A stretch of 63,247 bases of DNA, filler included, from Psammoneis japonica (taxonomy: Eukaryota), in NCBI GenBank assembly GCA_008632985.1. It is 4 parts of 4 records of this genome, joined end to end, with 100 filler letters (N's around TTAATTAATTAA, not from the genome) between each part and the next. Parts side by side here need not be neighbours in the genome. Positions count along the whole stretch, not along the records: positions 59,619 to 63,247 come from QPGO01000372.1; 3 more parts are not named here. One strand, given 5' to 3'. The notes under the pieces were generated by a model. The model was not told where the DNA came from. It worked only from the letters and a program-made list of their open reading frames with translations, and ran no database searches. Positions 39,821-63,247 of this stretch are shown here, in pieces; positions within the stretch are counted from its first letter, which is position 1; the number at the start of each line of letters is the position of its first letter. The position numbers were made by a program, and so were the translations under genes.

Positions 39821-40286
39821 GTCTCCTCTGGGGGATGCGTTTTTGGCTTCTGCAGCATCCCTTGAAGCATGCACCAGAGGTGTGGGTTGGCTGGCACCGG
39901 TGTTGCTGGGCAAAGGTGCAACAGCACTTTAAGTTGGGTTTGGGTTTTTTTGTCATTCATGCTTGACATGCAGCTGCCTTGGGAACAACTCTCAGTTGGT
40001 GTGATGAGCCACTCTTCAATGTGCAGGATGCTGGCCAGCGCCAGTGCCACCTCCACTTCTGTTGCTGCTCCCACTGAAACAACAATTCCCAAATCTGATG
40101 GTGGTTCTCTGGCTTCAATCAATTTGACCATTCAAGTGTCTGTTGCTTGAGTGTCTGGTGCTTGTCCTTGCACCCTCATGAGCTGCCAAGACACAACAGT
40201 TGGTGTCAACAACCAAGGTGATCAGCTCTGAATGCACTTTGGCAGCTTTGCAAACAAACCTCATCTCAAGAAATGGCACAAAAAGA

Positions 40287-40386
40287 NNNNNNNNNNNNNN
40301 NNNNNNNNNNNNNNNNNNNNNNNNNNNNNNTTAATTAATTAANNNNNNNNNNNNNNNNNNNNNNNNNNNNNNNNNNNNNNNNNNNN
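40287..40386. other. Artificial contig linker 44N-TTAATTAATTAA-44N
   Basis: Same 100-nt structure as 26411-26510. Confidence 0.97.
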
Positions 40387-41362
40387 GGTGTCTTCCAATC
40401 GGTTTATCAATCACAACTCTCTTTCCGGGGTTCCCAACCGTAATAGCAATATATGTCTTTTTAACCTGACGAGCAGCAAACGCTTCGGACAATGTGGCGA
40501 GAGCAGCTCGTGTCTTTGCCACCACCAACACCCCAGTGGTTCCTTTGTCTAGTCGGTGAACAATGCCCGGGCGAAACGATATGGCTTCTCCCTCGGTGCC
40601 ATCCACATTTATACCCTCAGCCTCTTTTGGATCGACACTTCCGTCTACGTCTACAAAGTCCCCAGTACCATATGGACTTACATTGGCGAGATAATAAGCC
40701 AGCGCATTCACAACCGTTCCGTCCCAATTGCCAGCCGCGGGATGTACCACCATGTCAGCCGCCTTGTTCAAAACAATCATGTGTTCATCTTCAAAGAGAA
40801 TGTCAAGAGGCAAATCTTGTGCGATGATCTCTGTGGGCTTCTCCTCTGCAGGATGTTGAACAACTAGTCTCATTCCGGCTTGTACTTTTGTGGATTTTGT
40901 CTGTACAATGTTTTGTTGATCGTTCTTTCCAACAATACGAACATTTCCGTCTGTGATGAGATGACCACAATGAGATCGAGACAACGTAGGTTCCAGCTTT
41001 GCAACGGCCACGTCGAGACGTTTGTTATGAAGTTCATCCGGTACCATGTATTCTTTTATTTCTCCAGAGTCAGCCTCAAACTCCAAGTCGTCCTCGTCGT
41101 CCATGGGCGTTACGTCAGCTCCATCCATTTCGAGCTGCCCCTCAAAGGCTTCAATGGCATCTAAATCAAAGCTCAAGGCCGGAGGCGGCTTGGCAAAGCA
41201 AGGTTTCGATCGTGCTAGACAATTGACACTGCTTCTAGAAGCCAGGCAAAACGCCGAAACCATTGAGCGCTCAACTGTTAACATAATCGTGAAACACACC
41301 ACGACAAACGATTTTCCTTGGTTTCGCTGTTGACATTGTCCGTCTCGATCTACCCGCATCAT
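40387..41362 (-). CDS. rluD: Second, 3'-truncated copy (probable allele) of the RluA/RluD pseudouridine synthase
   Basis: Reverse complement of ~3812-4786 with a few substitutions (S>R, P>L, E>G, L>V) and one extra A in the leader; cut by the contig linker. Confidence 0.85.
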
Positions 41363-41729
41363 AGAGCGATCTCTCTGCAGATATTCTCATGGAATCAAAC
41401 ATATCGAGTGCTGTGATAGAATGAGCGATATATATTTTGTTTAGGGTTGATAGGGTACAGTACAAAAAGAGGAGGAGTGCGAATGTGAATGGTGATGATG
41501 ATGGGTGATGGTGATGGGCGTTGTTTCTTGGCTCTTTTTATTTTTTTGCAGATCATCTGCATCACCTGTGACTCGTACTTCGACAGACGAAGTTCCGGTG
41601 TGATGTTCGTTCGTTCGTTCGTTGTTAGTTTTATGTCATGTGTTGCGCTTGTGCTGGCACTGACTGTGATGTAGTTGAGAATAGAGCACGTAAAAAAGCA
41701 AAACAACATCATGTGTCTTCACGGATGCC

Positions 41730-44700
41730 AAGGTTAGGTCCTTTCATCAAGTCCACAACTTACAAGCACACACTGTCTAAATGAGCTCAATCGCAGATCG
41801 CCTGGTGTGCCGCTCTTTTTTCTGAGCAGGCAAAGCACAGGTGTCACAGCACCAGTGAAGTCTGCAACAGGTGCTGCTGTCTTTCTGATGCTGAGCAGCC
41901 TGTTGCTGCTGGCAAATTTGCATGTTGTGGGTGAAGTTAGTGTTGACCACAATGATGCAGTCTTTGCTGCTGCACTTTCGGCTGCAACCACTTGTTTCGC
42001 TGGAGCCAGGCTTTGTGGGAACACCTGCCCTTTGGCTGTGCTCCAGGAACTGGCCTCAGTGCACTTCCAACTTGTGCACCAGGCCTTGACTGGGAGTTGG
42101 TGGTTGGGCATTCTTGTTGTGACAGTTTCTCATGCAGAGCTGCTCACTTCACCCACAAAAATTGTTCCAGAAGAAGTGACCAAGTGCACAAACAAGCATT
42201 GTTGGGGAGCTGTGATGGGATTCTTGCTTGCAGTCATGACTGGAGTGGTCAGTGTGAGTTTGATTGTTGCCAACAAAAAGACACTGGACAACCATGGCAA
42301 CTTGTCAGACCCTCCTCTCCAGCTGGCACACAGACTGGAGTGTGCTTCTTGTTGCGCTGCTGCTCTGTCATGACAGCATCAAGGGTTCCACATTGATGTT
42401 GGCACTGGTGCACTGTGCCGATTGTGTTGTTGGCTGGATTGTGCACAGCAGCTGGCTGGACTCAAATTTTCTCCTCCCATGTGTCACAACAATGAACACA
42501 CACAGCTGCTGCACTTTGTGCATTTTCTGCACAAGCATCAGTGTGCTGTGTCCAGCAACAACCAGAGCTCCTGTTGTTCTGCTTTGTGTCTTTGACATCT
42601 CTGGAGTCATGTTTGGGTTGATCATTTGTGGCTTTGGCAGTGGGGGTTCTTGTTGCAGAGCATTTCTCTGGTCAACACCAGCCATTGTCATTGTGAAATG
42701 CACTGCTGAAGTCAAGGAAGGGGGTGCAACTGGCCTGGCAGCCATGCAGTCATTGGAAAATTTTTGCTGCTGGCATTTCTTGGAACCTTTTATCACTGCT
42801 GTCCTGAGCAGTGCAACAGCACCCTTGCTGGCACTTCTGGGTGCAATGATTGTAAGAAAATTGGCCAAGATTGAGTGGCTCAAAACATGAGCAATGTTCT
42901 GCTGGGGTTCTTGACAAAATCACTCTCATGACACTCCTCACCTGCAGCATTGCAAATGGAGTGACACTCAGGTGTGTGACTTCTGTGGGTTTCCACTCTG
43001 CTGCTGACCAACTCCTTGCAAACTCCAAGAAAGTTGCTGTTTAAATGAGTGTTTGAGTGAGTGATCACTGCTGAGCACAAAGTGGAGCAGCGCAACAGCA
43101 CCCACACTGGTGCCAGTGGGTGCAATGATGATGGTGGGAGAATTGGCCAAGATTGAGAGGCACAATGTGAGGAATGCTCTGCCAGAGTTCTTGACAATCA
43201 TTCTCATGCCACTCACCCACAGCGTTGCAAACAGAGTGACATTTGGATGCCTGACTTTTGTGGGTTTCTGCTTGTTTGCTTCTGGCCAGCTCCTTGTGAG
43301 CTCCAACAAACTTGCAGATTCAATTCACATGCACATCTGTGACAGAAGAGCAGAGCAATCTTTCAGTTGGCTGCTGCAGCTCCAACACCAAGATTTCACC
43401 AACAAGTTGGGAAGCAATGCAGGCCACGGCACTGTTTGAATGAGTGTGTGAGTCAGTGAGCTCTGCTGAGCACAAGGAGGAGCATCTGACTTTTGAAAAC
43501 AGAACATCATTTGTCCTGGGATCACTCACAGTGTTGAGATGATTTGTCATTTTGAGCATCAAGCTAAAGTGTTCAGCAGCCTGCCATTTTGCACTTTTGT
43601 GCTCTGCTTGTCATGACAGATCTCCAACACAATGACACCACATGAACAGAAGCTGGGCCCAAGATGCATCTGGAAAAGGCCTGAACCCTTTGGGTGCAGA
43701 GGGCAAGAAGATTGTCTTTTCTTGATTTTTCATTGCATTCCTTCTCAAACTTTGTGCTTGACCTCTTGTCATGTCTCAAACAAATTGGTGCAATGAGTGT
43801 GAATCTAACCATGACAAAAAAGCACAGACCTGTTTAAAAGTGTTGTCAGCACCCTGCCCTGCAACCGGCAAACCCACACTTCCAGAGTGGACTGCCTGAT
43901 GATGTGTTGCAGCACAAGCACAAGTGGATCAGCCAGAATTTGCATGGGCCACTGGTGGCACCCTTCAAAAGCAACATGCTGTGCCAAGCCATTTTCATTT
44001 GAAAAATGCTGATTTTGAATTGTCAAACATGACTCGTGACACAATCCATTTTTGTCCAATTTTGGTTTCAATCACAACTGTCACTTGTCACATTGGAACA
44101 TTGTTGCAGCATCAATGCTTTTGTCTTGTGGGCTCCCTGCAGAACAGAATGTTGAACAATTGCTTTTTCATTGCCTGGCACATGACACAAATCAATGACA
44201 TGACCAATGCTTTCAGGGCCAACAAAACTTGTCTCTAGACCAACAAATCTGTGTTTCTGTGCCACAATGCTTTGTCTCATTTTGTGGAACATGTCTTCTG
44301 GACTTGTTGTTTGACCTTGTTTCATCAATGCCTCTCATCCCACCCAACTCTTTGCATCAACATGTGCAAGTCAAGCTGCTGGCCCCAGAACTTCTTCACA
44401 GCCCAAGTCCACATTTTTTGCTGTCAACACACACACAGTCCAGTTGGCTCAATGGCTGGGTTTTTGCTTTGGCTTCTTGGCCATTGCTCTTGCTTTGTCA
44501 ACTGAAGAAACTCTTTTTGACAGATTCTTCACAGTGTCCCTGTGCCCACATGTTTCAGCAGCTTTTTGTTCAGTGTGCTGCCTCCTTCATGCTGTTGATG
44601 GCAGTGGTGGAGTTGAGCAGTGGCAAGCACACTGTTCCCAGCATTGACACATTTATTTTGTTGGCAAATGAGCTCAAACTTGTTGGGAAGGTGTCTTGGT

Positions 44701-45585
44701 GTCAGTTGGCTGGGGTGTTGGGCTCACTGTTGGGAGATTTCATGAGTGCAAGTGCATCATCATTCACAAAACTCTCCCCTTTGGTCTCCTCCTCCATGTT
44801 CTCAGAATGTTCAACAGCATCCTGAGTGCATGACACAAAGTCTGTTGACTGGTCAGTTGGTGAGTCATCCACAATGTAGCCCTCATTGTGGATGCGTGCA
44901 AATGTGGCACATTTTACGTGATGGTTGCTGCCAACATGGTCAGCATGGTGGGGCTGCACTTTTTTGTCATTTGAGTGGCCTTCAATGATTGTCAAACCAG
45001 CAAGTCAATGCTGCTAAAAGATCGCCCCACTGGGCTGCCTGTGCTCTTCATTGATGCACTTGCCTTGGCAGTCTGTGATGGCTGTGGGTGGGTTGTCAAA
45101 GGTGTGAATGCAAACTGCAAACTTGCACAACAACAAGTGCCCTGCTGATGCCAAATAACAAATCACACAAACCACCAAATGATTCACTCCAAAGAGTGAG
45201 ATAAAAAAAACAAAGGTGAGAGATTGAGTGACAGCAAAGCCAGTCTTGCAATGAATCATCCAGCAAGCCATGACACTTTTCTTCAACTCATCTGGGTTCT
45301 TTGAGACCTCCATTTTCTGGGTCTTCTGTGCTCCAGTTCTAGCAAGAATGATGGCTTTGAGGGTGGAGACACTCCAACTGGAAATTGCAAAATGCTGTGT
45401 TGATGTGCAAAGCATGCACCACAGAAATGAGCAACAACATTGTCTTTGAATGAGATTTGTGCAATGCCTGAGCTGAACATCCACACATTTGTTCTTTGTT
45501 GAAGTTGCACAGAAATTGCACTGTGTTTTCATGCCACAAAAACTCCACAGTGTTTCAAAGAGCAGGTGAAAAACATGGCGACACA
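41730..45585. repeat. Repeat family A, copy 2 (inverted relative to 1-3440, extends further)
   Basis: Colinear reverse complement of 1-3440 up to 45210; same spurious ORFs (e.g. MLELTRSWPEANKQK). Confidence 0.9.
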
Positions 45586-46855
45586 ANNNNNNNNNNNNNN
45601 NNNNNNNNNNNNNNNNNNNNNNNNNNNNNNNNNNNNNNNNNNNNNNNNNNNNNNNNNNNNNNNNNNNNNNNNNNNNNNNNNNNNNNNNNNNNNNNNNNNN
45701 NNNNNNNNNNNNNNNNNNNNNNNNNNNNNNNNNNNNNNNNNNNNNNNNNNNNNNNNNNNNNNNNNNNNNNNNNNNNNNNNNNNNNNNNNNNNNNNNNNNN
45801 NNNNNNNNNNNNNNNNNNNNNNNNNNNNNNNNNNNNNNNNNNNNNNNNNNNNNNNNNNNNNNNNNNNNNNNNNNNNNNNNNNNNNNNNNNNNNNNNNNNN
45901 NNNNNNNNNNNNNNNNNNNNNNNNNNNNNNNNNNNNNNNNNNNNNNNNNNNNNNNNNNNNNNNNNNNNNNNNNNNNNNNNNNNNNNNNNNNNNNNNNNNN
46001 NNNNNNNNNNNNNNNNNNNNNNNNNNNNNNNNNNNNNNNNNNNNNNNNNNNNNNNNNNNNNNNNNNNNNNNNNNNNNNNNNNNNNNNNNNNNNNNNNNNN
46101 NNNNNNNNNNNNNNNNNTGACAACCAAGTTGTGCTGCAAGCTGCAAGAGCTGTCACAAGTGGCGCAGCTCTGCATGACGTGCAATTTTGTCTGTGGTTGG
46201 TGCTTAAGAACTTGGTGTGAAAAACATGGGCAGGACACCTGGACACCTGTGATGAGCTGCAAAAGCCTGAGTGCAGCATTTGTGATGGATTGCCACCTGC
46301 ATTGTCAAGGCAAACAATGGCAGGAGCTGCAGCAAGAGTTTTCAAGCAGGTGCCACATGTGCAGCAGACCATGGACAGCTGTGTGACGTGTTGGCAGCAA
46401 AGGAGATGATGCGCAAAAGGCCTGTGTGAAGCACAACAACCTTCAATTCATGGCTGTGCCTGGCAACAATGGGAGTGTGCAGAGCAACAGCAAGTGTTGC
46501 AAAGAAAGATCTTTTGAACCAAATGCATGATGGCAGCAAGTGGGTGCTCTGCTGGCATGTCATGTGCTGCAGAAGCTGCCCGTGCAGCAAAACTGTCTCC
46601 ATGTGCAATTGCACTGCTTGATGACAGCTCACATTTGTCAACAAGAGCTCACGAGAATGCTTTGGCCACACCAGTGGCAGTGCCCTGGGTGGCCATGGAT
46701 CCACAGTGTGGAGAGAATGTGGACATTGAGCAACTGGAAATGGCAATCAGCTGATGGCCAACATTGAGAAGATTGAAAGAGATGCAGCAAGGAAAAGAGA
46801 GAAAGCATCACAAAGTGCAGGCAGTGCTGATGAAATGGGCAAGGCTTCAGGGAGA

Positions 46856-47028
46856 TGAACAAATTGCCCTGCAGTCGCATGAACTGGGGACAAGACCAAA
46901 AGAAAGATTTGCAACATCGTGCCAGTTTTCTAGAAGTGAGATCTAAACCTGAGGAACCGCTCTGTGCCCAATCGTCAATGACAAAGCACACCAAACTAAT
47001 TCAAATTGATCACATGGTAAATTTTTCA
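46856..47028 (-). repeat. 3' LTR (173 bp, TG...CA), preceded on the minus strand by PPT-like GAGGGGAC
   Basis: Aligns with 53246-53422; TGAA/TTCA termini. Confidence 0.92.
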
Positions 47029-50000
47029 GTCCCCTCAAGTTGATGACTTGAACAATGAGTCGGCTTGACCCAATTTACTCTCCGGCCACATTTGGTCACT
47101 CTAACATGGGTGGCATGCCAAACAAATGTGTCCAGTGAGTGACTCACCCATTGCCATCAACTCCCTCATGGCGTGGCAGCAAATGGAGTTCGACTTCTTC
47201 TTCAAAGTGGACTCTGGACTTTGTGTGTTGTGGACAACTGACATGTTGTCCCCACAGATGTGGGATGGACCAGTCAATGGCACATCCATCATCCTTGGCT
47301 CATGTGGCAAGCTGTGCAAAGACTCCATGCCTTGTTTCATGGCTGCAAACTAGGCTCCAAAAACCAAGGCTTCAACTGCACTTTGGCGCTTAGAAAACCA
47401 CACCATCAAGGTCATGTGCATGCAGATGAAGAAGCCGGTGTGCGAACATCTGGTCAACTCATCATTTGGATGATCCAAGTTGACGAACAAGTGCAGATCC
47501 ACCTCCAAGCCTGGAGGTTCTGGCACATTGGGTGGGATTTCTCTTTCCTGCACATCCCCATGAAATGACTTCCAGTCACATTCCTTGAAGTCAGACATGT
47601 CAATGTCCAGTCATGTCGGGTCAAACACCAGCCTGGCATTGTGTCTTGCCTTGAGACATTCATGTGCATGTGGAAAACAGCCTCAAGGGGACCCTCCCTG
47701 GGCACAACAAGAAATGAGGCAAGCTCCAAAACCTCTGTCATCAGATTGACGTGTCTGAGTTCCACTGTCCATTGCAGGACACCTGCCTGCAACTGGCAGA
47801 ACTGGGCATCCTCTGCCTCAAGCTCAGGCAATGCATCTGTAACTTGGGATGACAATCCCGTGGAAATGGAGTCGATGCCCAGCATGGCAATGTCTGTCCA
47901 GGGCAGCATTTGTCCAGATGCGCCTCCACATTCTTGACAGCCTGCTGGATGCACTTGCTGAAGCTCATGCCTCATGCGCAGATGCCATTTGGCAATTGTG
48001 CCTTTTGGATCTTGGCACCCAGATGCATCTCAGGGTTGCCGATTGAACCAGGCTTCATCTTGAAGCAATGATCCAACTCCTTGAGTGTGCTCATGGCATT
48101 GTGGTGTGCCATTGGCACATCATCCATGTGCAGCAGTGCATGCACGCAGTGCCAAAACCTGTCCTTGGATCAGACCACTTCCTCAAGCGATCTGGGGCTT
48201 CCACCCAAGATGGTGCACACAGGAGGCCAGGTGATTCCTGAAGGCCGTGCCTGTGCTCTTCAAACTGCAAAGTGCGTGCTTGACTGTTGCATGCCTCCCT
48301 GCATTGTGCCTGAACTCTGGGTTTAAAGTCATCATGATCATCCAACTGTTGGGTGCAGTGACACAAGCATTTTCAATGCCAGCTGCCTTGACCTCTGAGT
48401 CATTCAGAGCAGCCAGATGAAGGTGATCCTCACACTCTCACGTGACACAATGCTTGTGCATGTCAAGGTGGTGGGAGCATCTGTGTGGCATGCCCACCAG
48501 CCACATGGTGTGCCTTGTGCTTGAAGTCTTGTGGCTCTTTACGTTGAAGACCAAGTGACATTTGACATGCTGGCATCCTGCCAGTTCCTTGTTGTCATCA
48601 ATGATCTTGAATGCCTTGTTGACAACACCCATTTCCTCATCTGTGGTGTCTTGCCACAGGCGGTTGCCGTTTGCCTGGTCAATCTTAACCATCTCATTGC
48701 ACATCTTGGGAGTGCACATCCTGCACTTGTGTGTCCATTTGTGACACCACTTGTTCATTGCAGCAATGATCTGCTGCCATTTCTTTAAGGCACATTGAAC
48801 ATGGAACCCACCATGCAAAGGCTGGTTCATCCCGATCGATCAAGCTCTGGCATGCTCAGCCAACTTGACCATGTTGGATTCCTTCAAGTCTGCAAGGCGT
48901 TCCCAAGTCATGGTCCCGTCTGTCCAGCTGACACAAAGGTGCCATCCTTTGGTCATCTTTTGCATGGTTTGGTGTCTTCTGCCATCCTGTGGAAAGGTGC
49001 CATCCTTCTGGACTGCATGCCCATCAGTTCTGTGGTCAACAATGGCGTCCAGAAGCAAGCACTGATTGCCTTTGTTGTCACATTGTGTGAAGATGTTCTC
49101 AGCTGTGACATTGGCTGCAACCTCTGCTTCCTGGCCATCAGGAAATTCGACCTTGTGTGTGCGAGTGCCTAGAATGGGATTGTCATTGGCCCTGCCCATC
49201 GGTGTTCCATCCAAGTTGAGCTTGCACCGCTTGACTGTCCCAGTTTGCTGGGTGTCCCCATGAGGCAGCAATGCTTCTGAGTTTGCATGAACATCAAAAG
49301 CAGCATCAGGTGCATTGTCCTCATTCTTGGGTGCACTCGCAGGAGCATCTTGGTCAGCATTGTCCTTGCAGGGATCAAAAGTGGGAGTTGTGGCATCAGG
49401 GTCATTGATGTCTCCAACCGTCATGCCTGGGCCTGGCTTGGCCTCTGTTGGCCCATCAAATTTCTTGCGCAATGCCAAGTGCATCTCGTGGCACTGTTCC
49501 TTGGGGTTCACCAAGGGTTGACAGGATGAATGGAGGACAACTTGTCCATTGTCCTTTGGCATCTTGGCTGTCATGGCGGGACTCATGTCCCGACTCGGAC
49601 CAAGGCAATGCCCCAGGACCTCCTTGTCCTCGGGGAATGAGACGGCTGTGTCCCCAAACATGACCCAGTCGCACCAGCTGCACTCGCATGTGTGCGAAAT
49701 GTCGGCTGTCTGTCTGGACACTGCGGTTTCTGGAACCTCTCTGTCTAACTCACAAATGTTGTGGTCTGTGTTTGATCAGACAAGAGCTTCAAGCTCAAGA
49801 CAATCATCACAAAGATGCTTTGGGGCTCAAGTCTTCACCATCTTGCATCCCACTCCCCCGCTTGAGTTCACGAACAGTGCCCTCAGTGAAGTTTGACCAT
49901 GGAGCACAGGGTTCAGTCTGCTTGACATGGCAGTCGGCCTCCCTGGCCTTCTTGCTGAACTGACCCAACACCTGGTCTTTTGCTCTGTCCACGATCATTG

Positions 50001-53000
50001 TGTGGGGCACCCCATCTTGTGTGAAGAGCAAGGATGGTGGTGCTTTGTGCGCTGGTCCTTTAGATCTGAGGGGACAAGCCCATGCCCAACCATTGGACAT
50101 GCCAAAGACTTGTGCACAGGTGTTGCCCCTTCTCAACTCAGTCAAGGAGACCAAGGCATTGGAGTGCATCTCCTTTGCAATGTGCCTGTGTTGCAACTGT
50201 TGGTTGTTGGTCCAAAACCTCCAAGACAGCATTGAATGGAGGACCATTCATGCACCATGCTGCACCGTGACTTTGACAGTGTTCTCAGCATCCTTGACAC
50301 TGACAGATCAGTTCTTGACCAAATGTTCTGTGTCAACATGCAGTCCCCACTTTGTCATCTTGAGCGAAGAGAGACCAATCAAGGCAAGCAGCATGTGGTC
50401 ATCACATGCATGCAAGATGTCTCAAAGCAGCTGATTTCCCAGACAGTCTGAGGTCTCTTGCATCACAGTGCATGAGAGCTTCACGCTCATGATGTGGATC
50501 TGAGGATGTGCATTGTCCACAGTCTCAGGCACATGACCAAGAGAGTCTGTCATGGAATCCTCTCTGGTTTGAAAGTCGGCAGTTTTTGTGGGTCCCATTC
50601 CGGGGACTCGCAAGCAAGTTCTGCTGCTGTGCCATTTTGCATGGTGGCTTCATGCTCAGAAGCAGTGGGTTTGGAGGTGGGAAAGCAACTCGTGACATCA
50701 TTTAACTCCAACAGAATCAGGAGCTCATCCTCACATGCATCTGTCAATGTCACTGCATGTGACTCACTGTCAGGCTTTGTCAGCAGGAATTTTGGTTGTA
50801 AATTGACTCCCACTTCATTCAGCCACAGCTTCAGGGGACACAAAAGGTTGTGTTTGAGGTGCAGGACATGTGCTGCCTGGTGGACTGCCAGGACATGTTG
50901 GTGGCCCGAGGTGAGGTCTGCACATGCGACGGCTCTGCTGACAGTGCACAGACTCTTGCTGGCACCCTTTTTTGGGGTCGCAACCTGTGACATCTGCTGG
51001 ACAATCATGGTCAAGCACAATTAAAGCATGCTTGCCCAGTGCACTTGCATCTGCATGACTGTCCAACTTGGTGCAAGCTTCAGTGTGCATGGCTTCTCAC
51101 ATGGTTGTTTGGGTTGCACGCAGGGTTCGAAGCGGACTGAGACAAAGGGCCAGAGAGGATCATTCCTTCTCCTTCCTGCCGGGTTTGAGGTCGCCATTCT
51201 TGTCATGCCAGTTGTTGGCCATTGTGTCCTTCAGTGATTGGAAGTTAGAGCGGTTGTGCTTCTGCTTGACAGCAGCCCACTTTGTGGTTTCTTTGGACTC
51301 ACCAGCAGCATCGTCCTGCTGGTCCTCAACATGAGCAGCAATGGCTGCAACAGCACTGGTGAGGGCCTTGATCTGCTTTGCGTTTTTTGGTGGCAGACAT
51401 TGCACCTTGGCCACCACAAGCATTGTGCAGGGACTCTGGTTTCTTCCGTGCTTTTGGGGACATTTGCTTGCACTCCTTGTCAGGGCAGCACTTGTCCTTG
51501 ACATCTTTCTCATGAATGATGTCATCTCATTGGCGCTTTGCCTCCTTCAAGGTGGCAACACAAAGCTTCTTAGTTTTGCCGTCCAGCTTGGACTGCTTGA
51601 TGAAGTCTTCACATGAGACAACACACCCATCAAAGTCACTGCGCAGCATCATGCTGGCCACAACCTGTGCTTTGACAGAGTCAAGGAACACACCCTTGAT
51701 GCTCTCCAGAAGGTGGTGCACCTTGGAGCGTTCATCAATCCTGGCATGGCCACACTCCTTGAGGCCCTCAATGCCATGTTTTGTCTGTGTCATTTGGGCC
51801 CAAGAAGTGGTTGCACAAGTTCAGGCAGGCTGTCCTGCCATCCTGATTGTGTCGAGCCTTTTTCACATGTGACCAGCAAGAACACGTGATTGCAGCAACA
51901 ATCTCCCAAACCTTGATGTCATCAGCGACAAATGTTTTGGTGGGTTGCAGGCCAGCCCCAGCAGCGAAGTGGGGGGCATGGGCAATCATCTTGGCACAGG
52001 CATTGGTGCAGCTGTTGGCGTTGTCATCTGCCTCCGGTGCAACTGCCTGGTTCTCTTGGACCACGCAGGCTGGCTGGGGGCATTTTGGTCTTCCCGGAAC
52101 TGGCACGAAGATGCTCGTGGATGGCTTCCATGGCTTCCATCATCTTCAGCCAGTCCTTCTTGATGACAGCAGGTGGGGTGTCAGGGTTCTCATGGGCTGA
52201 TTCTGCTGTGCAAAAGTGGCGGCACCCCCTGACATGGTCGAGGGTGATGTCGGCAGCATGCAATGTGCATGAGATGCGCTCACAGTGGTGACGAGCAGCA
52301 AAAGCCGCAAGCTTGAGGTTCATCTCAGCCTGCAGTGATGCAGCAGTCCCCAGGTTGGGTTGTAGATTCACTCCACTGCCTGCTGCACCTCCTGGGCAAT
52401 GCACAACCTTGCACAAGGTCTCGACCTCGTGATCGTCAAGACGACGCAGTTCCTCGACAGTGTCGACTCCCTGGTCAGCAGTGAGAGCCGCTGATGCTTT
52501 GTTCGTGAAGCCAAGTCTGCGGCATGCTGCACGCATGGCTGCGACATGGGCTGCTATGGTTGATGGCTTGGTGGTTCGTTAACGACAGGGAACTCTTTCA
52601 AACGAGTTGTGTGGTTCTCATGCAAAAAGTGAGCGAGTTGCGCGAAGTTCAGATCGCTTTTTCATCGTCATGTATGTGAAATCCGTTATTTTATCTGACC
52701 AACGCGTTTAAAATTAGACTTCAGTGACTATACAAACTATTTACGTTCATACGATCTTCCTGATCGATACTGATGGTGAGTGCAAAGTATAATATCGAGA
52801 ATTATATAGCGAAATGACTATTTAATATATAGACATGACAAAAAAGTTTAGGCGACCAACGGATGTTATACCGTTTTAAAATCTATTTATGATATTATCT
52901 CCCATCGATTTCGAATCGCTCACGCGTTTGCCTCCGAGATTGATGGGGCCCTTGATAACTTCGGAATGGAAATGGCGTCCCAAATCCATGGATTTGCGCT

Positions 53001-53231
53001 CTGTGTTCGCGTATGTACGCCATAAAACACATCAGAATAGACGATGCTATAGTTATCAATAAGTATTTAAACTTGTACTGATTCTGGGAGCATTAAAACT
53101 CGTTCAACCACGAACGTCTCTTGCATTCTTAGATGTTTTCTAGTCATCCCTGACTTTCGTGGAACGTTCTGTGGTATTACGAATCATTCGCAAGCAAAGA
53201 AGATACTCAGAATCGTCGTTTCGTACGTCGA

Positions 53232-53242
53232 TGGCTCTGATA
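53232..53242 (-). promoter_or_regulatory. Primer-binding site, initiator tRNA-Met type (TATCAGAGCCA)
   Basis: Three nt inside the 5' LTR; matches the canonical Copia PBS TGGTATCAGAGC except CTT replaces TGG. Confidence 0.8.
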
Positions 53243-53245
53243 AAG

Positions 53246-53422
53246 TGAACAAATTACCCTGCAGTCGCATGAACTAGGGACAAGACTAAAAGAAAGACTT
53301 GCAACATCGTGCCACTTTTCTAGAAGTGAGATCTAAACCTGAGGAACCGCTCTGCGCGCGCCCAATCGCCAATGACAAAGCACACTAAACTAATTCGAGT
53401 TGATCACATGGTGAATGCTTCA
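53246..53422 (-). repeat. 5' LTR (177 bp, TG...CA)
   Basis: Aligns with 46856-47028, with a 4-nt indel and about a dozen substitutions. Confidence 0.92.
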
Positions 53423-56400
53423 GAGAGACAAGCTCAAGTTCGCTGGTTGGTGGTTGCATTTGTTTTTCACAATTTTGTTTTGCGTGGTGGCACATTGCTT
53501 TTGAAAGTGTTGCAAAACAGCAGAGTGACAAGAAGGCAGGGGTTGGTGCTGCAGCAGACGCAGATGGCATGACCACACAGACAATGCTTTGATTAATGTG
53601 ATGGAGACAGCTGCTGATGTGGAACCCCCAGACAAAGCAAGAATGGCTGAGTTGGTGGAATCTGCTCCACCAGATGCAGTGACAAACATGTGACACAGGG
53701 CACAGCAACAGTTGATGATGCTTTCACTGGTGTGACAGCTGCTGATGCAGAGACCCAAGAAACAAAGAAAGAACAGCAAAGTCAGCAACAATTGCTCCAA
53801 CTGATGCAACAATGGAGGAAGTGACACCTTGTGCAGTGGCAGTCATGGAAACACCAGTGTTGTTGCATGAGGCAACCAGCGACACAAGCAAGCACCACTT
53901 CACCAGAGGAAATCATGATGAGGGAAATGATGACTGTGGTGGAGGAGGAGGCAGTGCCAAAAAGTGTGATCATGACAACATGCTGTTTGGACAGCAACTG
54001 CATGACTTGTCAGCCTGTGCCAAGCAAAGTCAAATTTTGCTTGGGCCAAGTTGTGTGAATTGCAGCAAGTGTGCTTTGACAAGGAAAAGGGCAAAAACAA
54101 GCACAAACATCACCAACCGACAGCGTCAAATCCAGCCAATGCACTTGCATGTTCTGCAGGGAGCAGTGACATGCTTTGTGTGACCTGCACAAGGCAAAAT
54201 GTGAGACAGCCATGCAGCCAGCCAAGCACAACAGGAGGAAGAAACAGAGGGGGGTGGGAGCAGCAACATCTTTGCAGCATCCAACAGAAAACAGCAGTGA
54301 CAACATCATGCAATTTGCATGGTGACAGAGTGATGATGACAGGAATCAGGAACCATGCACAATGCACCATCATTGCCCCACCAGTGCTGGCACACATTGA
54401 CAGCACCAGAGAGAAGGAGAGGACAGCTGGCCGCGCACCACCACAGGTGCAGCATTGCACCCAGAGGGGGGAGTCGGGCTGACCACAACAGGGCAGACAC
54501 GAACATCAAATTGCAGGTGCATTCCAGCAATGGCAGGCATTGCAGGCCAACCAGCAATGGTGTGTTGGGTGAAATGATGTCCTTTTCCCAGTGCCATCAT
54601 TGGGGTTGTTGCTGGCAGCACACCAGGGAAAGCCAGGGACAACACAAAACAGATGAGTGTGCATTGCCAGCAGCATGTCAGCAACAAGTTTGGGGGGGAA
54701 CTGGAGCCAGCAACAAGAGGGCAGTTGCTCCAGCAGCAAGCAGTGCAAGCAATGTGTGAGGACATTCAGGTGGAACCACTTCTTTGTGCCAGCAACAACT
54801 GGCATGCTGGGGCATTGGCAGCATGGATGCAGGCATGCTCAAACACATTGCCAGTTGCAAGGAATGTGGCTGCCCAAAATTTGCACCAGCAAATTTGCAC
54901 GACTGCTGGTGTTCTCACAAGCTTTGCACCGGTTGCCTCCAGCCACTCCTTGTGCAGTGTGCTGGCATCCCACAGAACCTGGGTTGTTTGTCAATTGACC
55001 AGACTGGACTTGCACAAGTGCCTTCAAACACTCAATGAAAATGACAGCACTGTGTTGAGGTGGTTTGGACAATGTGCACAAATGGGTGCTCGCATGTGCC
55101 TCAAGCCCGCCCCCCCACTGTGCTGGCAACACACATCTTGGCTTCATTGCTTCACTCACATCTGTTTCATTTCAGGATTGTGGGCATGACATCAGTGCTC
55201 ATTGTGTCCCATGTCTCAATGGTTGAGCCTCTGCCAGATTTTCCACAAAGTCACCACACCAAAAGGTGTGGGCATGCACAGCTGTCTTGTGTGGAGTGAA
55301 ACATTTTCTGAGTGTGCACGACAAATGCGATTGCTGCATGGCACCACCGGGTGCACACTCTCATGTTTCAACTGGCCCAGAAAATGAGATGCAGACAAGT
55401 GCCACATGTTTGTGACTGTTTGCTCCCAATGCCATGGCTCTGACAAGAGCACAGAGATGCAAAAAGGCACTCACAATGGGAGATGCAATGGTGGTGGGTG
55501 TCACAAGTTGCCACACAACTGGCACATGCATTGCAATCATGGCCATTGCAGCTGCAATGGCATGCTGGCATTTAGGATTTGACACAAATTCTGGAAGCTG
55601 ACTTGACTTTTTCATTCTCAATTGTGCGCATCAATCTCAAATTTGTTTTTGGAAGTGCTGCAGTGGTGAAAATGTGTTGTCTGACACTTGGCTCCTTTTT
55701 TAAAAGTGTTGTGCAATGCCCAACAAGTTTGCATTGTGCAATGGACTCCTCTTTCCTCTTTGGTGTCCTCAGGCTCAGTTTTTCACACACAAGACACCTC
55801 CACTCAGATTCATCACACATGCAACCCTCCGCCACGATCAGCACAACACCTCCTGGTCTCATTCTGGCTTCACAGACTTGTTCACAGCACATGTCATGAG
55901 TGAAGAAGACAAGCTGCTGAGCACTTGATGCAAGGCATTTGTGCATTCAGTGTTTGCATCTGTGTTGCTGGCATTGCCAGAGGTCAATCATGACCTGATG
56001 CAAGCACAATCAACCTTGTCAAGTGCTTTGAATGACTCCTCTTTGTCCAAATCTTCAGTGCCCAACAACAGATTGAAAAAACCAAACTGGCTCATTGCTT
56101 TCTTTTGCACTGTGGAGCCAGATGCCAAGAGCAACATGTCAAGAAACAAAAAGAAGAAAAGTCACCTGTGTCACTCACTCCCAATGTCTTGGATTGCTGT
56201 CCCAAGCGTCAATGTGATGTGGAGCTCCCAAAGCACATTCATTCTTTTTGCTTTCCAAATGGATGCAACGAGTCTCCAGACAAAATGTTGCCAACATTGT
56301 GGACCATGGTGTTGACATTGAGCAAAGGACATGTCACTTGCATGCTGCCATTCTTGCAACATGCTGGGAATGCAAGCCATGCATCACAGTCACATGACAA

Positions 56401-57640
56401 GAAGTCTCTGATGAAAAAGCCAAGACAAGGCACACTGGTTTTCAAAAGGAAAGTGACACTTTGTTCAACTCGGCAAGAAAATGCACTGAGAAACCATCCC
56501 TGCTGCATTGTGGAGCAGAGACAGGTTGAATGCATCACTGTGCAAGCTGGATGTTGCAGCTGAGGAGTTTGCAGTGGAAGCCCCTGTCACCACACAAATG
56601 GCTTTCTCTCAGCACATTGAAACAAGATGAATCACTGCACAGTGGTCTAAGAGCTTGTGGCCCTGTCAATGCCAAGTCATCTCACTTTGCTTGGCACTTC
56701 ATTGTGCTGGCCAACAAGCCCACAATGTCTGCAATGTGCAACATGGGGAAGGTGCACTTGAATGTTTCATGCATCAGTGGTCAGTGGAGTGGGCTCCGTG
56801 GAAGCAACACTGAATTCTGTTGTGGAGAACAGCTCTAAAAAAGACAATGTTCATTGTGAACAAACCCAACATCAGTTTTGGCCTCTGATGTTTCCACCTG
56901 GATGGAGCCAAACACCCTGCAAGCAACCAAATGCAAACATGCAAACATCTTGTGAAGTCAAAAATGATGGGTGTGGCTCATCAGATTTTTTGCAGGATTC
57001 TCATGTGCAGTTTCTGCACATTGATGAATGGCACCTGCTGCAACAACAAGTGGCCATCTTGCTCACCACACAATTTCAAGTTTTGTTGCAACAAACACTG
57101 TTGTTGCCAAGAACCTGTCCTCATTGATGCTGTCCCCCCCCCCCCACACACACATTTTGACTCTGCTCTTCTTTGGTGTCTCAAGTGTGCAGCACTGTTT
57201 TGGATGTAGAGCCAGGCAGTTCAATCTCAGTGGTTGATGAAAGGAGCAAGCTCTTGCCACTGCTTGTGTCTCCCATGACAGATTCACATGTTGGCCCACA
57301 ATTTCATTTTTCAAAAGCTTCTCCACAAGCCTTGATGGCTTTTGTTGCCCTCTGAGGTCACCACCGCTGCATGTCAAATTTCCTTCTTGCCAGAAATTTT
57401 GGGTGTTTCTAAGGAAAATTGAGCAGAATCTGAAAGACATGTCAATTTGGCCAATGAGATGCATGGGGACAAAAAAATGAGCATTGGAGACAAGGTTGCT
57501 TTTCATTTTTTATCTTGGTGCTTTTGGCGGCACTGGCGACATGAACTTTGGCTCCATGTGCTGGATCTTTCAGGTGAGGGCTGCATTTGGGATGCTTCTT
57601 CAATTCACTGTCTTCATTTGTTTTGCCATGACATCAATGG
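53423..57640. repeat. Unclassified CpG/TpA-eroded sequence; probable continuation of 46119-46855, interrupted by the Copia insertion
   Basis: Same dinucleotide erosion as the other repeats; GAGA on both sides of the Copia; no assignable domain. Confidence 0.5.
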
Positions 57641-59518
57641 TGCAATGAGTGTGATTCCAACCATGACAAAAAAGCACAGACCTGTTTTTTAAAGTGTTGT
57701 CAGTGCCTTTGCCCTGCAACCAGCAAACCCACACTTCCAGTGTGGACTGCCTGATGATGTCACAGCACAGGCACAAGCGGATCATCCAAAGTTTGCATGG
57801 GCCACTGGTGGCACCCTTCAAAAGCAACATGCTGTGCCAAGCCATTTTCATTTGTTGAAAAATGCTGATTTTGAGTTGTCAAACATGACTCTTGGCACAA
57901 TCCATTTTTGTTCAATTTTGGTTTCAATCACAACTGTCAAATGTCACATTGGAACATTGTTGCAGCATCAAAGCTTTTGTCTTGGGCTCCCTGCAGAACA
58001 GTCTTGACACAAATGAATGGAATGACCAGTGCTTTCAGGGCCAACAAGACTTGTCTCTAGACCAACAAATCTGTGTTTCTGTGCCACAATGGTTTGTCTC
58101 ATTTTGTGAGACATGTCTTCTAGACTTGTTGTTTGACCTTGTTTCATCAATGCCTCTCATCCCACCCAATTCTTTGCATCAACATGTGCAAATCAAGCTG
58201 CTGGCCCCAAAACTTCTTCACAGCCCAAGTCCACATTTCTTGCTGTCAACACACACAGTCCAGTTGGCTCAATGGCTGGGTTTTCCACTTTGGCTTGGGC
58301 CATTGCTCTTGCTTTGTCAACTGAAACTCTTTTTGACAGATGCTTCACAGTGTCCCTGCCCACATTTTTTAGCAGCTTTTTGCCCAGTGTTGCCTCCTTC
58401 ACACTGTTGATGGCAGTGGAGGAGTTGAGCAGCAGCAAGCACACCATTCCCAGCATTGACACATTTTGATGGTGAGTGAGCTAAAACTTGTTGGGAAGGT
58501 GTCTTGGTGTCAGTTGGTTGGGTTGTTGAGCTTGCTGTTGGGAAATTCCACAAGTGCAGCTGCATCATCATTCTCAAAACTCACCCCTTTGGTCTCCTCC
58601 TCCATGTTGTCAGAACATTCAACAATGCCCTGAGTGCATGACTCAAAGTCTGTTGACTGATCAGTTGGTGAGTCATCCACAATGTGGCCCTCATCTTCAA
58701 AGTCACCTTTGAAATCCACTGTTGCCTCATTGCATGCCATCCTGTCACCTGGTGTGTCATCAGCATTCTGCCTCTCATGAGCGCTGCACCATCCACAACA
58801 GACTGTTCTTGTGGTGCCATGTGCTGTGTGGTGTCAGCCATGACACACAAATTGGCCACCATCTGCTGCTTCATTTCTTTGTGACCAGTTGTCAGATGAT
58901 CTGCTTCGCTCTCAAGCACCAACATGGGCAGGCATGGATTGTTGAGGCCAAGAGACTTCTGCCAAACCAACACTGAACTGTGCCTTTTTTGTTTGTTGCC
59001 ACACTGATTTTTCTGCCAACGTTTGCATCACCTCACATTGTTGGAATCCATCTGTCATTTTGCTTGATGCTTGGGTCAATCCACTCAAGTGCTTTTTGCC
59101 TTTTTTCTGTGCTCATGCTGGATTTCTGCTCTGGACAATGGCACAACAATGACACATCATGTGACCCCCACAGACAATCACAAAGAGCAGCAGTTGTGCA
59201 CAAGGGAGAAAACTTGCACTGCTGCATTGTGGATGCTGCCAACATGGTCAGCATGGTGGAACTGCACTTTTTTGTCATTTCAGTGGCCTTCAATGATTGT
59301 CAAACCAGCAAGTGAATGTTGCTAAAAGATCATCCCACTGGGCTGCCTGTGCTCCTCATTGATGCACTTGCCTTGGCAGTTTGTGATGGCTGTGGGTGGG
59401 TTGCCAAAGGTGTGATTGCAAACTGCAAACTTGCACAACAACAAGCACCCTGCTGATGCCAAATGACAAATCACACAAACCACCAAATGTTTCACTCCAA
59501 AGAGTGAGACAAAAAAAA
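57640..59518. repeat. Repeat family A, copy 3 (inverted, partial, with ~0.5-kb extra segment)
   Basis: Reverse complement of ~1-1395; segment ~58690-59230 is absent from copies 1 and 2; ends at the same A8/T8 run as window position 1. Confidence 0.88.
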
Positions 59519-59618
59519 NNNNNNNNNNNNNNNNNNNNNNNNNNNNNNNNNNNNNNNNNNNNTTAATTAATTAANNNNNNNNNNNNNNNNNNNNNNNNNN
59601 NNNNNNNNNNNNNNNNNN
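59519..59618. other. Artificial contig linker 44N-TTAATTAATTAA-44N
   Basis: Same 100-nt structure as the other two linkers. Confidence 0.97.
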
Positions 59619-61117
59619 GGGTCAGCGGGTCGGCGGGTCGGTGGGTCAGCGGGTTGGCGGGTCAGTGGGTCAGTGGGTCAGTGGGTCGGTGGGTCAACAG
59701 GTTGGTGGGGCGCCCCACCCATTTTCTTCATTGCTGGATGCCACGGCGATGCATTGCTGTGGCTGTCACTTGATTGGAGCTGACTGTGCTTGGGGTTTGT
59801 GACAAAATCTGTTGAATGGACAGCCCGGTTTGAAATCCTTTTGAAAAGTTCCTTGGACAAATGAGCACAGGAAGAACCAGCGGATCTTGCCGCGAAAATT
59901 CTCGCGCAATTCTGCAATGCGTGAGAACCCAATGGTGCGCTGCATGGCTTGCATTTGTGACAAAGAACAAGCTCAACAATCTGTCAACACACCAGTTTTC
60001 TGAGCGCAACATGCCAAGCTTCTGCTCACTTTACATTTTGTGCTGTCAATTGCAACGTTGTTCACCAGATTGACTGGCGGTCATCATTGTTTGACAAAAG
60101 CCGTCACAAACGGGGTGCGAATGCTCCATGGCATGTTGCCTGTTTTTTTTTGCATTGTTCAATTGATGACTTGCGCATCTGGTGTGTGGCTCCGCACTTG
60201 CTGGCGTGCAGAACACGCACAAATGCATGAGAGGGGAAGCGCGGGGAATTGCCAATGCATTGTTTTTTGTTCGTGTGTTGAGCACACATGTGACGAAGGG
60301 CAGTTTGTGGCAACTCCCTGGGAGCTCACCCTTTCCTCAGAAAAACAGGGTGAAAGGTGGCAATCCCAAGGAATTTTGTTCAAAAACACTGCAAAACCAA
60401 ACTGAGATGCGCTCCATGTTCTTGAAGACTTTTGTCCTGCACTTGACCTTCATTGAGGTGGATTTGGCTTGAAGTGTGCAGGAGATCATTGAGGCTGCAT
60501 GTCTTGGCCAAACAGCGCATTCAGGAATTTCCCAAGTGTCCCCACCATGGACAGAAGCTCTTTTTCCATTGTGACGTGAACACCAAATTTCAGGCATGAT
60601 GGTGGCGCAGTTTTTGACATGATGCACTTCATGGTTTTGGAGACTTTTGTTCCGCACTTGACCTTCATTGAGGTGGATTTGGCTTGAAGTGTGCAGGAGA
60701 TGATTGAGGCTGCATGTCTTGACATCAGCGGCGTGTGTTGAGACAAGATCGGCGGGTCGGCAAGTCGGAAGGTCGGCAGGTCGGCGGGGCGCCCCATCCA
60801 ATTTCTTCATTGCTGGATGCCGTGGCAGTGCGCTGCTGTGGCTGACGGGCTCCAGTCCTGGGCGGGACTTTTTGTGACATTGGGCCAGCAGAATTCTGCG
60901 TGCGAGCTCCGTGTTGCGAGAGTCCAGCCAATGGACATTGTTGTCTTCAACACCAAACAAACAACCAAGTTTGTGGCACAATTGCGGCCATTGCCGCTTG
61001 ACATTTTTGGCAATCCGCCCACCCTGCGCCATTCATGAGACATCCGCAAATGGCGCAGAAGCAAAAAATGTCAAAAGTTGTTGGGTGGATCGCTCAACAA
61101 GTGTGCCACAAAATGAC
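59619..61117 (+). repeat. Complex repeat: GGGTCRGY-type minisatellites (59619-59706, 60750-60790) in a ~1.08-kb higher-order unit, plus an ~80-bp direct repeat
   Basis: Both minisatellite arrays are followed by gggcgcccca.cca.tttcttcattgctggatgcc; 60427-60507 is repeated at 60641-60721. Confidence 0.8.
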
Positions 61118-63247
61118 NNNNNNNNNNNNNNNNNNNNNNNNNNNNNNNNNNNNNNNNNNNNNNNNNNNNNNNNNNNNNNNNNNNNNNNNNNNNNNNNNNN
61201 NNNNNNNNNNNNNNNNNNNNNNNNNNNNNNNNNNNNNNNNNNNNNNNNNNNNNNNNNNNNNNNNNNNNNNNNNNNNNNNNNNNNNNNNNNNNNNNNNNNN
61301 NNNNNNNNNNNNNNNNNNNNNNNNNNNNNNNNNNNNNNNNNNNNNNNNNNNNNNNNNNNNNNNNNNNNNNNNNNNNNNNNNNNNNNNNNNNNNNNNNNNN
61401 NNNNNNNNNNNNNNNNNNNNNNNNNNNNNNNNNNNNNNNNNNNNNNNNNNNNNNNNNNNNNNNNNNNNNNNNNNNNNNNNGATGTGTTTTCATCCCAGGT
61501 GAGAAACGCGCACACGGAGGTGAGACGTTTCATCTGTCCCTTTTCCGTCGCCGTGCTTTTTGTGCGAGCAAATCTGACTGGACTTTCCCCCGATTTTTCG
61601 TTTCTTCTTTCCACAGACATGTTTGTTTTGAAAAGCCAGCCGTTGTTCTCATTGGTTGAAGGGTGCGCACAAGAAAAGCGCTGTCTCGAAAGCGGCATTT
61701 TTTGGAGTGAAGCCAACAGCTGTCTGCTCGTTGTTGTCACTCTGGCGCATTTGAGAGACTGTCCCACTGTTTCTTTCACCGAATCTGACTGCTTTGAAAG
61801 AATGTGCGCGTTGTTCATTGTGTGAAGAGCTCCCACCAAAAAAGAACGGCGCTCTGGCTCCATCACTTGCACAAGAAAAATCGGGGGAGCTGACTTCGCA
61901 CGTGATTTTTTTGCGCGATCGGCCGTTTCAAAGATCGACTGATTTGTCGACCTGTGTGGGACACTTGAGTGAACAAAACAACAGGATTGAAGTGGCAGCA
62001 TCAAAGTTCAATGTGTGTCCAGTTGTCATGTGATTTGACATGCCCAAGCAGAGTTGAAGATGAAATGTTGACAAAATTTCACCGCTCAAAATGACTGGTT
62101 CTATCTTGGAACAAAATGGGGTGGCCACAACACTGAGATGTCGCCAATGGCGTTGTTCTGCTTTACAACAATGAAGCTGTCACACTTGCATCTGAGATTC
62201 TTTGTCCTCACACACCCTCAAAACCGAGCACATGACGATTCTCTTGTCGGCAGCGAAATCTGATGTTGTCGCGCGACCCAAAAGCATCGTCCACAACGAC
62301 TCAAAGTGCGGACGATGCACCACAAGAATCACAGCAATGTGCCACAGAAACATTCTTCGTTGTCAGCATCCGGTGTCAAGCAGATGGAGCAGCGCGTTGA
62401 CGAGAATCCTGCTTCGCAAGCTGAGGAAGAGAGAAAGAGGCATCAAAAACATCATGAGTCAAAAGGCCATCCACGAGGCACAACAAAAACAAAGATCAAA
62501 TTTTCAACCACGCCATCGCACTGAGCGTTGTCTCATTGACCTGTCTCGGCATTCTCACCTTCTCAGTCACAACATCCGTTGGTGCAAGAATGGACGAGTT
62601 CATGGCGACGGCATGGCGCCATTTTTGGTTTGCGCGAATTGTGGTTTGTGGTTCGAGACATGGAAAAACANNNNNNNNNNNNNNNNNNNNNNNNNNNNNN
62701 NNNNNNNNNNNNNNNNNNNNNNNNNNNNNNNNNNNNNNNNNNNNNNNNNNNNNNNNNNNNNNNNNNNNNNNNNNNNNNNNNNNNNNNNNNNNNNNNNNNN
62801 NNNNNNNNNNNNNNNNNNNNNNNNNNNNNNNNNNNNNNNNNNNNNNNNNNNNNNNNNNNNNNNNNNNNNNNNNNNNNNNNNNNNNNNNNNNNNNNNNNNN
62901 NNNNNNNNNNNNNNNNNNNNNNNNNNNNNNNNNNNNNNNNNNNNNNNNNNNNNNNNNNNNNNNNNNNNNNNNNNNNNNNNNNNNNNNNNNNNNNNNNNNN
63001 NNNNNNNNNNNNNNNNNNNNNNNNNNNNNNNNNNNNNNNNNNNNNNNNNNNNNNNNNNNNNNNNNNNNNNNNNNNNNNNNNNNNNNNNNNNNNNNNNNNN
63101 NNNNNNNNNNNNNCACGCGTCCATGCGGCTCTTTGCTGACGTGTGCTGACACTGCACGGTTTTGGCGGAACAGTGTGGGTGCGCACGAAGGAACATGCAG
63201 AACTGCAGAGAGTTTGCGCGTTCGACAGTGATCAACGTTGCTGCAGA

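Follow-up and report, generated by a model that had tools for sequence, protein, structure and literature searches.

TpA erasure is separable from CpG decay in a high-copy repeat of the diatom Psammoneis japonica

In this study, we found that a 1190-bp contig of the diatom Psammoneis japonica has lost nearly all of its TA dinucleotides while its CG dinucleotides are retained. This contig (focal contig, 61481-62670) is a repeat copy that lies between runs of N in a window of 63,247 nucleotides, the window being the whole stretch of DNA that was analysed. Exact counts gave 2 TA (observed/expected ratio, o/e, 0.025), located at 62102 and 62164, and 64 CG (o/e 0.94), in agreement with an earlier sequence-only reading that had reported about 60 CG and only 2 TA at the same positions. 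These counts and the distribution of both dinucleotides over the window support the conclusion that the losses of TA and of CG can be separated and that TA loss goes further or faster. The copy adds a clean TA-erased, CpG-intact example from a diatom; TpA-only hypermutation itself is already known from the alga Bigelowiella natans.

At the TA frequency of the genic DNA in the window, 47.3 TA are expected in the focal contig (P(<=2) = 3e-18), and 2000 mononucleotide shuffles of the contig had a mean of 81 TA and a minimum of 61. The CG count stays at the genic level, for which 68.3 would be predicted (P(<=64) = 0.33), and the CG rate of the fully erased blocks of the window predicts 8.5 CG (P(>=64) = 5e-34). 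About 96% of the expected TA and about 6% of the expected CG have been lost. Compared with the genic expectation, TA falls from 47 to 2 and CG from 68 to 64, while TG rises from 88 to 110 (o/e 1.48) and CA from 84 to 111 (o/e 1.50); a TA deficit of 45 is thus set against a TG plus CA surplus of 49. The share of pyrimidine-purine steps is 0.241 in the focal contig, 0.242 in genic DNA and 0.251 in the old erased blocks, and an equal share in all classes is the outcome expected if TA, CG, TG and CA turn into one another by transitions. Since TG and CA are nearly equal in number, both strands have been affected. AA and TT have not been lost (o/e 1.33 and 1.37, genic 1.13 and 1.12), AT has an o/e of 0.78, and the G+C content of the contig is 47.9% compared with 47.6% in genic DNA. 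The order of TG and CA along the contig showed no clustering (runs test, z = -0.74, not significant), and strand-processive patches of change were rejected on this basis.

The window is divided into four assembly pieces by linkers of the form N44-TTAATTAATTAA-N44 at 26411-26510, 40287-40386 and 59519-59618. The fourth piece (59619-63247) is a small 3.6-kb scaffold made of three contigs. Because of the linker at 59519-59618, this focal scaffold is no neighbour of the erased DNA at 53401-59518. CG rises between 58 kb and 63 kb, but as this rise spans two separate pieces it is no chromosomal gradient; the neighbourhood assumed by the sequence-only reading does not exist. The similar makeup that had been claimed for 59619-61117, 63114-63247 and the region around 3190-3390 was confirmed by exact counts. 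The sister contig of the same scaffold (59619-61117) holds 1 TA (o/e 0.011) and 62 CG (o/e 0.64), the third contig (63114-63247) has 0 TA and 12 CG (o/e 1.14), and 3190-3390 has 1 TA (o/e 0.10) and 8 CG (o/e 0.55). About 28% of the expected CG is lost from the sister contig, in which CG o/e is patchy and varies from 0.27 to 0.83 per 200 bp within 1.5 kb. The sister contig carries two tandem 8-mer arrays on the plus strand. The array at 59619-59709, with the inferred unit GGGTCGGC, keeps 7 of 22 inferred CpG, and a second array copy 1079 bp downstream (60746-60796) keeps 7 of 10. Between the members of a 96-nt repeat pair that includes these arrays, 10 of the 20 differences are CG-versus-TG/CA.

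The background of the window was described by a 1-kb profile and a two-state segmentation, which gave five sharp TA-low domains (1-3350, 14551-17850, 34501-40300, 41801-52550 and 53401 to the end of the window). Seven blocks that are low in both dinucleotides, one of them the comparator block at 53401-59518, together cover 27,023 bp with an o/e of 0.049 for TA, 0.12 for CG, 1.92 for TG and 1.93 for CA. In the genic DNA of the window (29,633 bp) the corresponding values are 0.58, 1.01, 1.17 and 1.16. TA erasure spares genes, as genic TA o/e is 0.58 and the TA-low domains are sharply bounded. One of the frames in the window, 3541-5259, was assigned by Pfam to a pseudouridine synthase; its best matches have 52-77% identity, and all six matches with a named organism are from diatoms (Bacillariaceae sp., Pseudo-nitzschia multistriata, Cylindrotheca, Odontella, Amphora and Seminavis). 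In a before/after repeat pair, 4 of 7 TA turned into TG or CA. The region 1-4786 and the reverse complement of 40387-45210, which form the ends of two pieces, are 96.8% identical and probably represent two haplotypes.

When the window was divided into 240 bins of 250 bp, 124 bins were TA-low (TA o/e < 0.2), and of these 100 were CG-low, 17 CG-intermediate and 7 CG-normal. CG-low bins were absent among the 116 bins with a TA o/e of at least 0.2. This asymmetry, with CG kept in 24 of the 124 TA-low bins and low in 0 of the 116 others, supports the proposal that TA loss is faster than, or independent of, CpG decay. Likewise, CG-low segments are nested in TA-low segments, except for offsets of 50-bp bins at the ends of pieces and at linkers. 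At six independent domain edges within contiguous sequence, CG outlasts TA at four and the two are roughly level at the other two; TA outlasts CG at none of the six. CG reaches about 200, 130, 680 and 700 bp into the TA-free side at the four edges. This is seen at two rims of erased domains: at 17213-17889 the rim is TA-free and keeps CG (22 CG in 17201-17850, o/e 0.55), and the rim at 51853-52554 has 1 TA and 28 CG in 51851-52550 (o/e 0.50). At the repeat edge pointed out by the sequence-only reading (3196-3396), CG resumes about 200 bp before TA, and in a second copy of this edge, at 41779-41998, CG likewise resumes before TA. A CpG-rich patch at 49577-49724 (10 CG in 150 bp) is located within an otherwise erased block.

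The uncoupling is also seen in survival relative to genic DNA, which is 0.042 for TA and 0.94 for CG in the focal contig, 0.017 and 0.72 in 59619-61117 and 0.082 and 0.124 in the old blocks. If the ratio of TA to CG of the old blocks was fixed, about 5 CG would be left in the focal contig, where 64 are observed. The argument that TA loss is not only a by-product of the repair of T:G mismatches is a fair one, its main support being the blocks that lack both dinucleotides and not the focal block alone. A repair bias that erodes TA should protect CG, yet 100 of the 124 TA-low bins are CG-low; therefore, a by-product of this kind is disfavoured.

Further copies of the repeat were sought within and outside the window. 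Ordinary BLAST of the scaffold against the window returned only its internal repeats and noise-level matches, and the same was obtained over the whole window with BLAST in a purine/pyrimidine alphabet, which is blind to transitions. Metagenome scans with a 26-mer gave 0 loci; three metagenome loci for a 20-mer matched only 20-31 bases around the query word and were taken as chance. Among public sequencing runs, the stretch was listed for a single DNA sample with three runs and for no RNA sample. Contigs of one of these runs (X1) were placed on 59619-63247 at a likeness of at least 80%; as this run may be the assembly's own sample, it does not confirm the base calls independently. On the scaffold 2661 contigs were placed, 334 of them at an identity of at least 99%, 544 at 95-99%, 1046 at 90-95% and 737 below 90%. 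Their summed depth is in the thousands, with depths of 33-106 for single diverged contigs. By the number and depth of these contigs, the scaffold is one copy of a high-copy family.

Over 2823 scaffold bases, 163 variant places with a share of at least 10% were detected in X1. Nearly all of them are transitions (A>G 35, C>T 49, G>A 42, T>C 22), and 15 are transversions. The classification of these changes covers 40 listed places of the 163, the adjacent pairs 61020/61021 and 62285/62286 being set aside. At 11 of the 40 listed places other copies carry TA where the window has TG or CA, and thus the family does show TA/TG/CA polymorphism, whose absence would have counted against the sequence-only reading. 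Six of the places with TA in other copies belong to the focal contig (62108, 62112, 62189, 62204, 62234 and 62294), with TA in 97% of the depth at 62108 and 62112, and the third contig has such places at 63181, 63184, 63197 and 63216. On the evidence of these TA-bearing copies, the TA-free state of the focal copy is therefore at least partly derived. Much of it is probably common to the copies and goes back to a progenitor that was itself erased, having not been acquired in the focal copy, because only 163 places vary whereas about 112 ancestral TA are assumed; this ancestral density is an assumption based on genic DNA and on one unconverted 178-bp repeat copy with 7 TA. Differences in CG run in both directions. 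At 5 of the 40 listed places the other copies have CG and the window CA or TG, and at 5 of the 40 CG is kept by the window and lost in other copies. In the sister contig, CG is present in 94-100% of the depth of the other copies at 59743, 59867, 59941 and 60582, where the window has CA or TG; in the focal contig, the CG of the window copy at 62401 and 62617 is absent from 98-100% of the depth of the others. Together with the CpG losses of the 8-mer arrays, these copy-to-copy differences argue that CpG decay is active on the focal element and is only part-way through.

Pfam searches with 11 open frames, eight from the scaffold and three from the rims at 17003-17482 and 51771-52578, returned nothing below E = 0.03. 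The 231-aa frame at 60340-61032 on the minus strand had two matches by phmmer among 1.84 billion representatives, both on the peptide of the 8-mer array. Rfam gave 0 matches at E <= 0.1 on the focal scaffold, and for the minus-strand frame 52027-52578 in the CG-keeping rim 0 of 341 candidates reached E <= 0.001. The open frames of the scaffold were considered as genes and rejected, since with TAA and TAG gone such lengths are expected by chance. Among the erased-block frames of at least 120 aa, one of 65 had a Pfam match (uDENN), and this search gave no support within the window for a transposon origin of the erased blocks. For annotation, this means that long open frames and Cys/His replacing Tyr in erased regions are products of the erasure.

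The focal copy had been interpreted as a younger repeat caught at an early stage. It is plausible that the copy is younger, and weak clocks fit this: the scaffold has 3 TA in 2823 bp, fewer than the 9.2 predicted by the rate of the old blocks, 88 in 27,023 bp (P = 0.019), or than 7.6 after scaling for the smaller TG/CA pool (P = 0.055). However, an unmethylated copy would look alike whatever its age. A pure age model is also opposed by the rims at the domain edges, the CpG-rich patch at 49577-49724 and the patchy CG of the sister contig, all of which fit local methylation differences. The old erased part of the repeat pair in the window, at 2.6% divergence, contains 17 TA sites, of which 7 are common to both copies; at 9, one copy has TA and its partner has TG or CA. 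With 857 TG/CA sites and a frequency of 1.2% per base, about 10 one-copy TA are predicted from ordinary transitions. As this is close to the 9 observed, residual TA in the old blocks look like regrowth and not like survivors of an ongoing attack, and a fast erasure does not seem to act on the old DNA at present. This fits an early, episodic burst.

We consider it rather probable that TA was erased first and fast and that CG decay followed later, as two separate processes acting on diatom repeats. The first process would convert TpA to TpG or CpA. Such an A:T-to-G:C transition can strike either strand of the self-complementary TA, and its simplest chemistry would be the deamination of an adenine 3' of T. 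This first process would saturate quickly and would probably be episodic. The second process would be the ordinary, slower decay of CpG to TpG or CpA that is expected of methylated cytosines. Accordingly placed along such a sequence of events, the focal contig would be an apparently non-coding high-copy repeat that is past the first process and scarcely touched by the second, the sister contig would be further along with its CG loss of about 28%, and the old blocks would be past both. As TA is self-complementary, a single activity that targets adenine would give equal amounts of TG and CA, as observed. In tRNA, the substrate of the adenosine deaminases TadA and ADAT2/3 is A34, located 3' of the conserved U33. 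A preference for T before A would thus be native to a deaminase of the TadA/ADAT2 family. It is tempting to speculate about an ordered defence with two layers, an episodic, saturating and methylation-independent TpA edit that is followed by methylation-linked CpG decay; the putative editor would probably be an adenine deaminase with a tRNA-like T-before-A preference. We propose this tentatively, as a possibility somewhat short of even chances. If true, TA-free, CpG-intact copies would be a short-lived intermediate that allows the two steps to be ordered and timed, and the editor would find its targets without 5-methylcytosine (5mC).

Potentially, the TA-erasing activity might instead cover wider chromatin or more repeats than cytosine methylation does. 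The repeat and the rims would then have been edited, would be un- or weakly methylated and would keep their CG indefinitely. Such a difference in targeting would account for the TA-free, CG-bearing rims of 130-700 bp at four of six independent domain edges, for the CpG-rich patch inside an erased block and for the patchy CG of the sister contig. We regard it as a serious alternative but as the less likely one, since CpG decay is under way on the element, whose 8-mer arrays keep 7 of 22 and 7 of 10 CpG, and since copies differ from the focal copy in CG losses both ways; rims are also expected if a fast, saturating process and a slow one both weaken toward an edge. The uncoupling of TA and CG loss stands under the age reading and under the weak-methylation reading alike. 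It might also be that the composition was inherited, the family being derived from a TA-free progenitor or being natively TA-poor, in which case the block would be silent on events at this locus. The 163 variable places over 2823 bases are indeed fewer than independent erasure of each copy would give, and erased DNA does get copied, as the two copies of the old repeat pair in the window agree in having TG or CA at 232 pyrimidine-purine steps and differ CA-versus-TG at 11. However, the TA-bearing copies at 11 of the 40 listed places (with 97% of the depth at two of them) point to private TA losses, and the match between the TG/CA surplus and the TA deficit is not required by native TA avoidance. 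Inheritance as the whole explanation is therefore improbable, and a progenitor must still have lost TA without CG, so that the uncoupling would stand.

GC-biased gene conversion among the copies would drive A/T-to-G/C changes and protect CG. The weak-to-strong direction of change at TA, the retention of CG and the high copy number of the family fit such a bias, but the effect is limited to TA. With AA and TT undepleted (o/e 1.33 and 1.37), AT at 0.78 and G+C at the genic level (47.9% compared with 47.6%), a general bias in favour of GC is excluded, and gene conversion has an almost negligible probability of being the cause. An artefact of assembly, sequencing or base modification had to be considered as well, since the focal block is a short contig between gaps and the repeat is difficult to assemble. 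This is very improbable, because the sequence recurs in contigs of the public run (334 of the 2661 at an identity of at least 99%), the identical signature extends over 27 kb of well-assembled DNA in the window, and the two diverged copies of a 3.3-kb erased block have 358 of 394 TG sites in common. We thus favour an early TA erasure followed by a separate CpG decay.

One 2026 preprint, on an unrelated alga, is the only precedent for TpA-specific hypermutation of nuclear DNA. The TA-erased, CpG-intact copy constrains the mechanism, as it rules out the deamination of 5mC, or the repair that follows, as the origin of the TA process, which is able to finish before CpG decay, or without it. Copies of this type form a class of loci at which it could be decided whether editing precedes methylation.

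Several known systems share features with the process described here. Very-short-patch repair of T:G mismatches in enterobacteria, when it over-corrects, replaces T by C within a set sequence context, so that a word with TA becomes rare. The context-bound bias from T to C is similar, but 100 of the 124 TA-low bins are CG-low too, and the loss is far beyond the input of replication errors. ADAR-type hyperediting that is fixed by reverse transcription changes A to G on one strand with a relaxed 5' neighbour (U or A). It was rejected because the products in the focal contig are strand-symmetric (TG 110, CA 111) and AA has an o/e of 1.33. Repeat-induced point mutation (RIP) is, like the process described here, a regional transition hypermutation that disables repeats and leaves a dinucleotide signature. 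In RIP, CpA is converted to TpA and TA is enriched, by a C-to-T chemistry that involves a DNA-methyltransferase-like protein. RIP acts in Neurospora and other ascomycetes (PMC7296669). The direction is opposite, since in the focal contig TA is destroyed (o/e 0.025) and CA/TG is enriched (o/e 1.5). Unlike in RIP, no link to duplication as such was seen, as the genic part of the 96.8%-identical 4.8-kb pair, which may be two alleles, is unmutated.

CpG decay by 5mC deamination yields the same TG and CA products and acts on the same silent DNA, and a DNMT5a knock-out study supports that diatom transposons are methylated through this enzyme (PMC9998398). Such decay would explain why the old blocks have lost their CG and why 59619-61117 has lost part of it; however, it cannot remove TA and has scarcely acted in the focal contig. 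Its signature, CG loss, is absent there (o/e 0.94), partial in 59619-61117 (0.64) and full in the old blocks (0.12).

The closest relative is found in B. natans, in which integrated DNA of giant viruses and virophages undergoes a TpA-restricted hypermutation (Mettrop et al., bioRxiv 10.64898/2026.01.13.699255). Full-text literature searches found no report of TpA erasure in diatoms, and this preprint alone fits; "CpG" and "diatom" have 0 occurrences in its text, which thus does not deal with the relation to CpG decay. As given in the preprint text, mutation-accumulation lines had 231 TpA-only mutations in two regions with 8469 TpA over 3132 generations; de novo mutations at about 1000-fold the background rate were seen in some lines only (10.64898/2026.01.13.699255). 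The same text proposes deamination of adenine to inosine and links TpA-depleted, CpA- and TpG-enriched clusters to transposon domains (10.64898/2026.01.13.699255). As far as the preprint text describes the process, both systems change TpA alone, to TpG or CpA and on either strand, and both act regionally on silent, foreign or repeat DNA, the process being episodic in B. natans. B. natans is a rhizarian alga and the present host a diatom. According to the same text, the depletion in B. natans stays incomplete (Rho TpA of 0.45 for the viral region), in contrast to a near total depletion here (o/e 0.02-0.05), and the target there is a single-copy viral insert, whereas here it is a high-copy repeat. 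The preprint numbers give a rate of about 9e-6 per TpA and generation for B. natans, which corresponds to a half-life of around 80,000 generations. This TpA rate is orders of magnitude above the background rate of 3.5e-10 in the preprint and far above any plausible CpG rate.

A repeat with one copy outside and one copy inside an erased domain provides a before/after pair for erasure, the near-complete conversion of TA steps to TG or CA. The copy in a TA-normal island (53246-53423) carries 7 TA, 4 of which are TG or CA in the copy lying within an erased domain (46856-47029). Among the aligned CG of this pair, 2/6 have likewise become TG or CA in the erased-domain copy, and there is one reverse case. 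The island itself (52551-53400, 850 bp) is normal in TA and CG and is flanked by two erased domains; at both of its borders TA density switches over a few bases. Directly outside another erased domain, the segment 17851-20000 is somewhat low in TA (21-28 per kb) with normal CG. Two 250-bp bins of this segment have a TA observed/expected ratio of 0.13-0.14, and none of its open frames (n = 6) gave a Pfam match.

Along the focal contig (61481-62670), a copy of a high-copy repeat, the TG:CA balance is 63:43 in 61481-62080 versus 27:48 in 62281-62670 (post hoc Fisher test, P = 0.0025), whereas the order of its single TG/CA steps gave no significant result in a runs test. This shift may reflect strand-biased editing patches or native composition.

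The contents of erased blocks are not limited to transposons. A uDENN domain remnant (56036-56560, + strand; Pfam E = 8e-8) sits in a block where TA and CG have both been lost, and thus a scrap of a host-type gene is found among erased DNA. A CpG-rich patch (49577-49724) holds 10 CG over about 150 bp and no TA, in an erased block that is otherwise CG-free.

Spacers of the form N44-TTAATTAATTAA-N44 at 26411-26510, 40287-40386 and 59519-59618 show that the window consists of four separate assembly pieces placed end to end, and inference from neighbourhood across these three places is unsafe. The ends of two pieces, 1-4786 and 40387-45210 (reverse strand), are 96.8% identical and probably represent two haplotypes. 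In their TA/CG-erased portion 87/3350 bases differ, and in the genic portion, encoding a pseudouridine synthase, 11/1436. Only 2 of the differences in the genic portion are TA versus TG/CA, and so the gene copy is not undergoing erasure.

Two old erased repeat copies, 43741-44887 and 57595-58695, are about 87% identical. At their pyrimidine-purine steps the TG/CA choice is identical in 232 cases and CA versus TG in 11. Since these choices are mostly common to both copies, erasure is mostly older than their duplication, and copying of erased DNA therefore continues.
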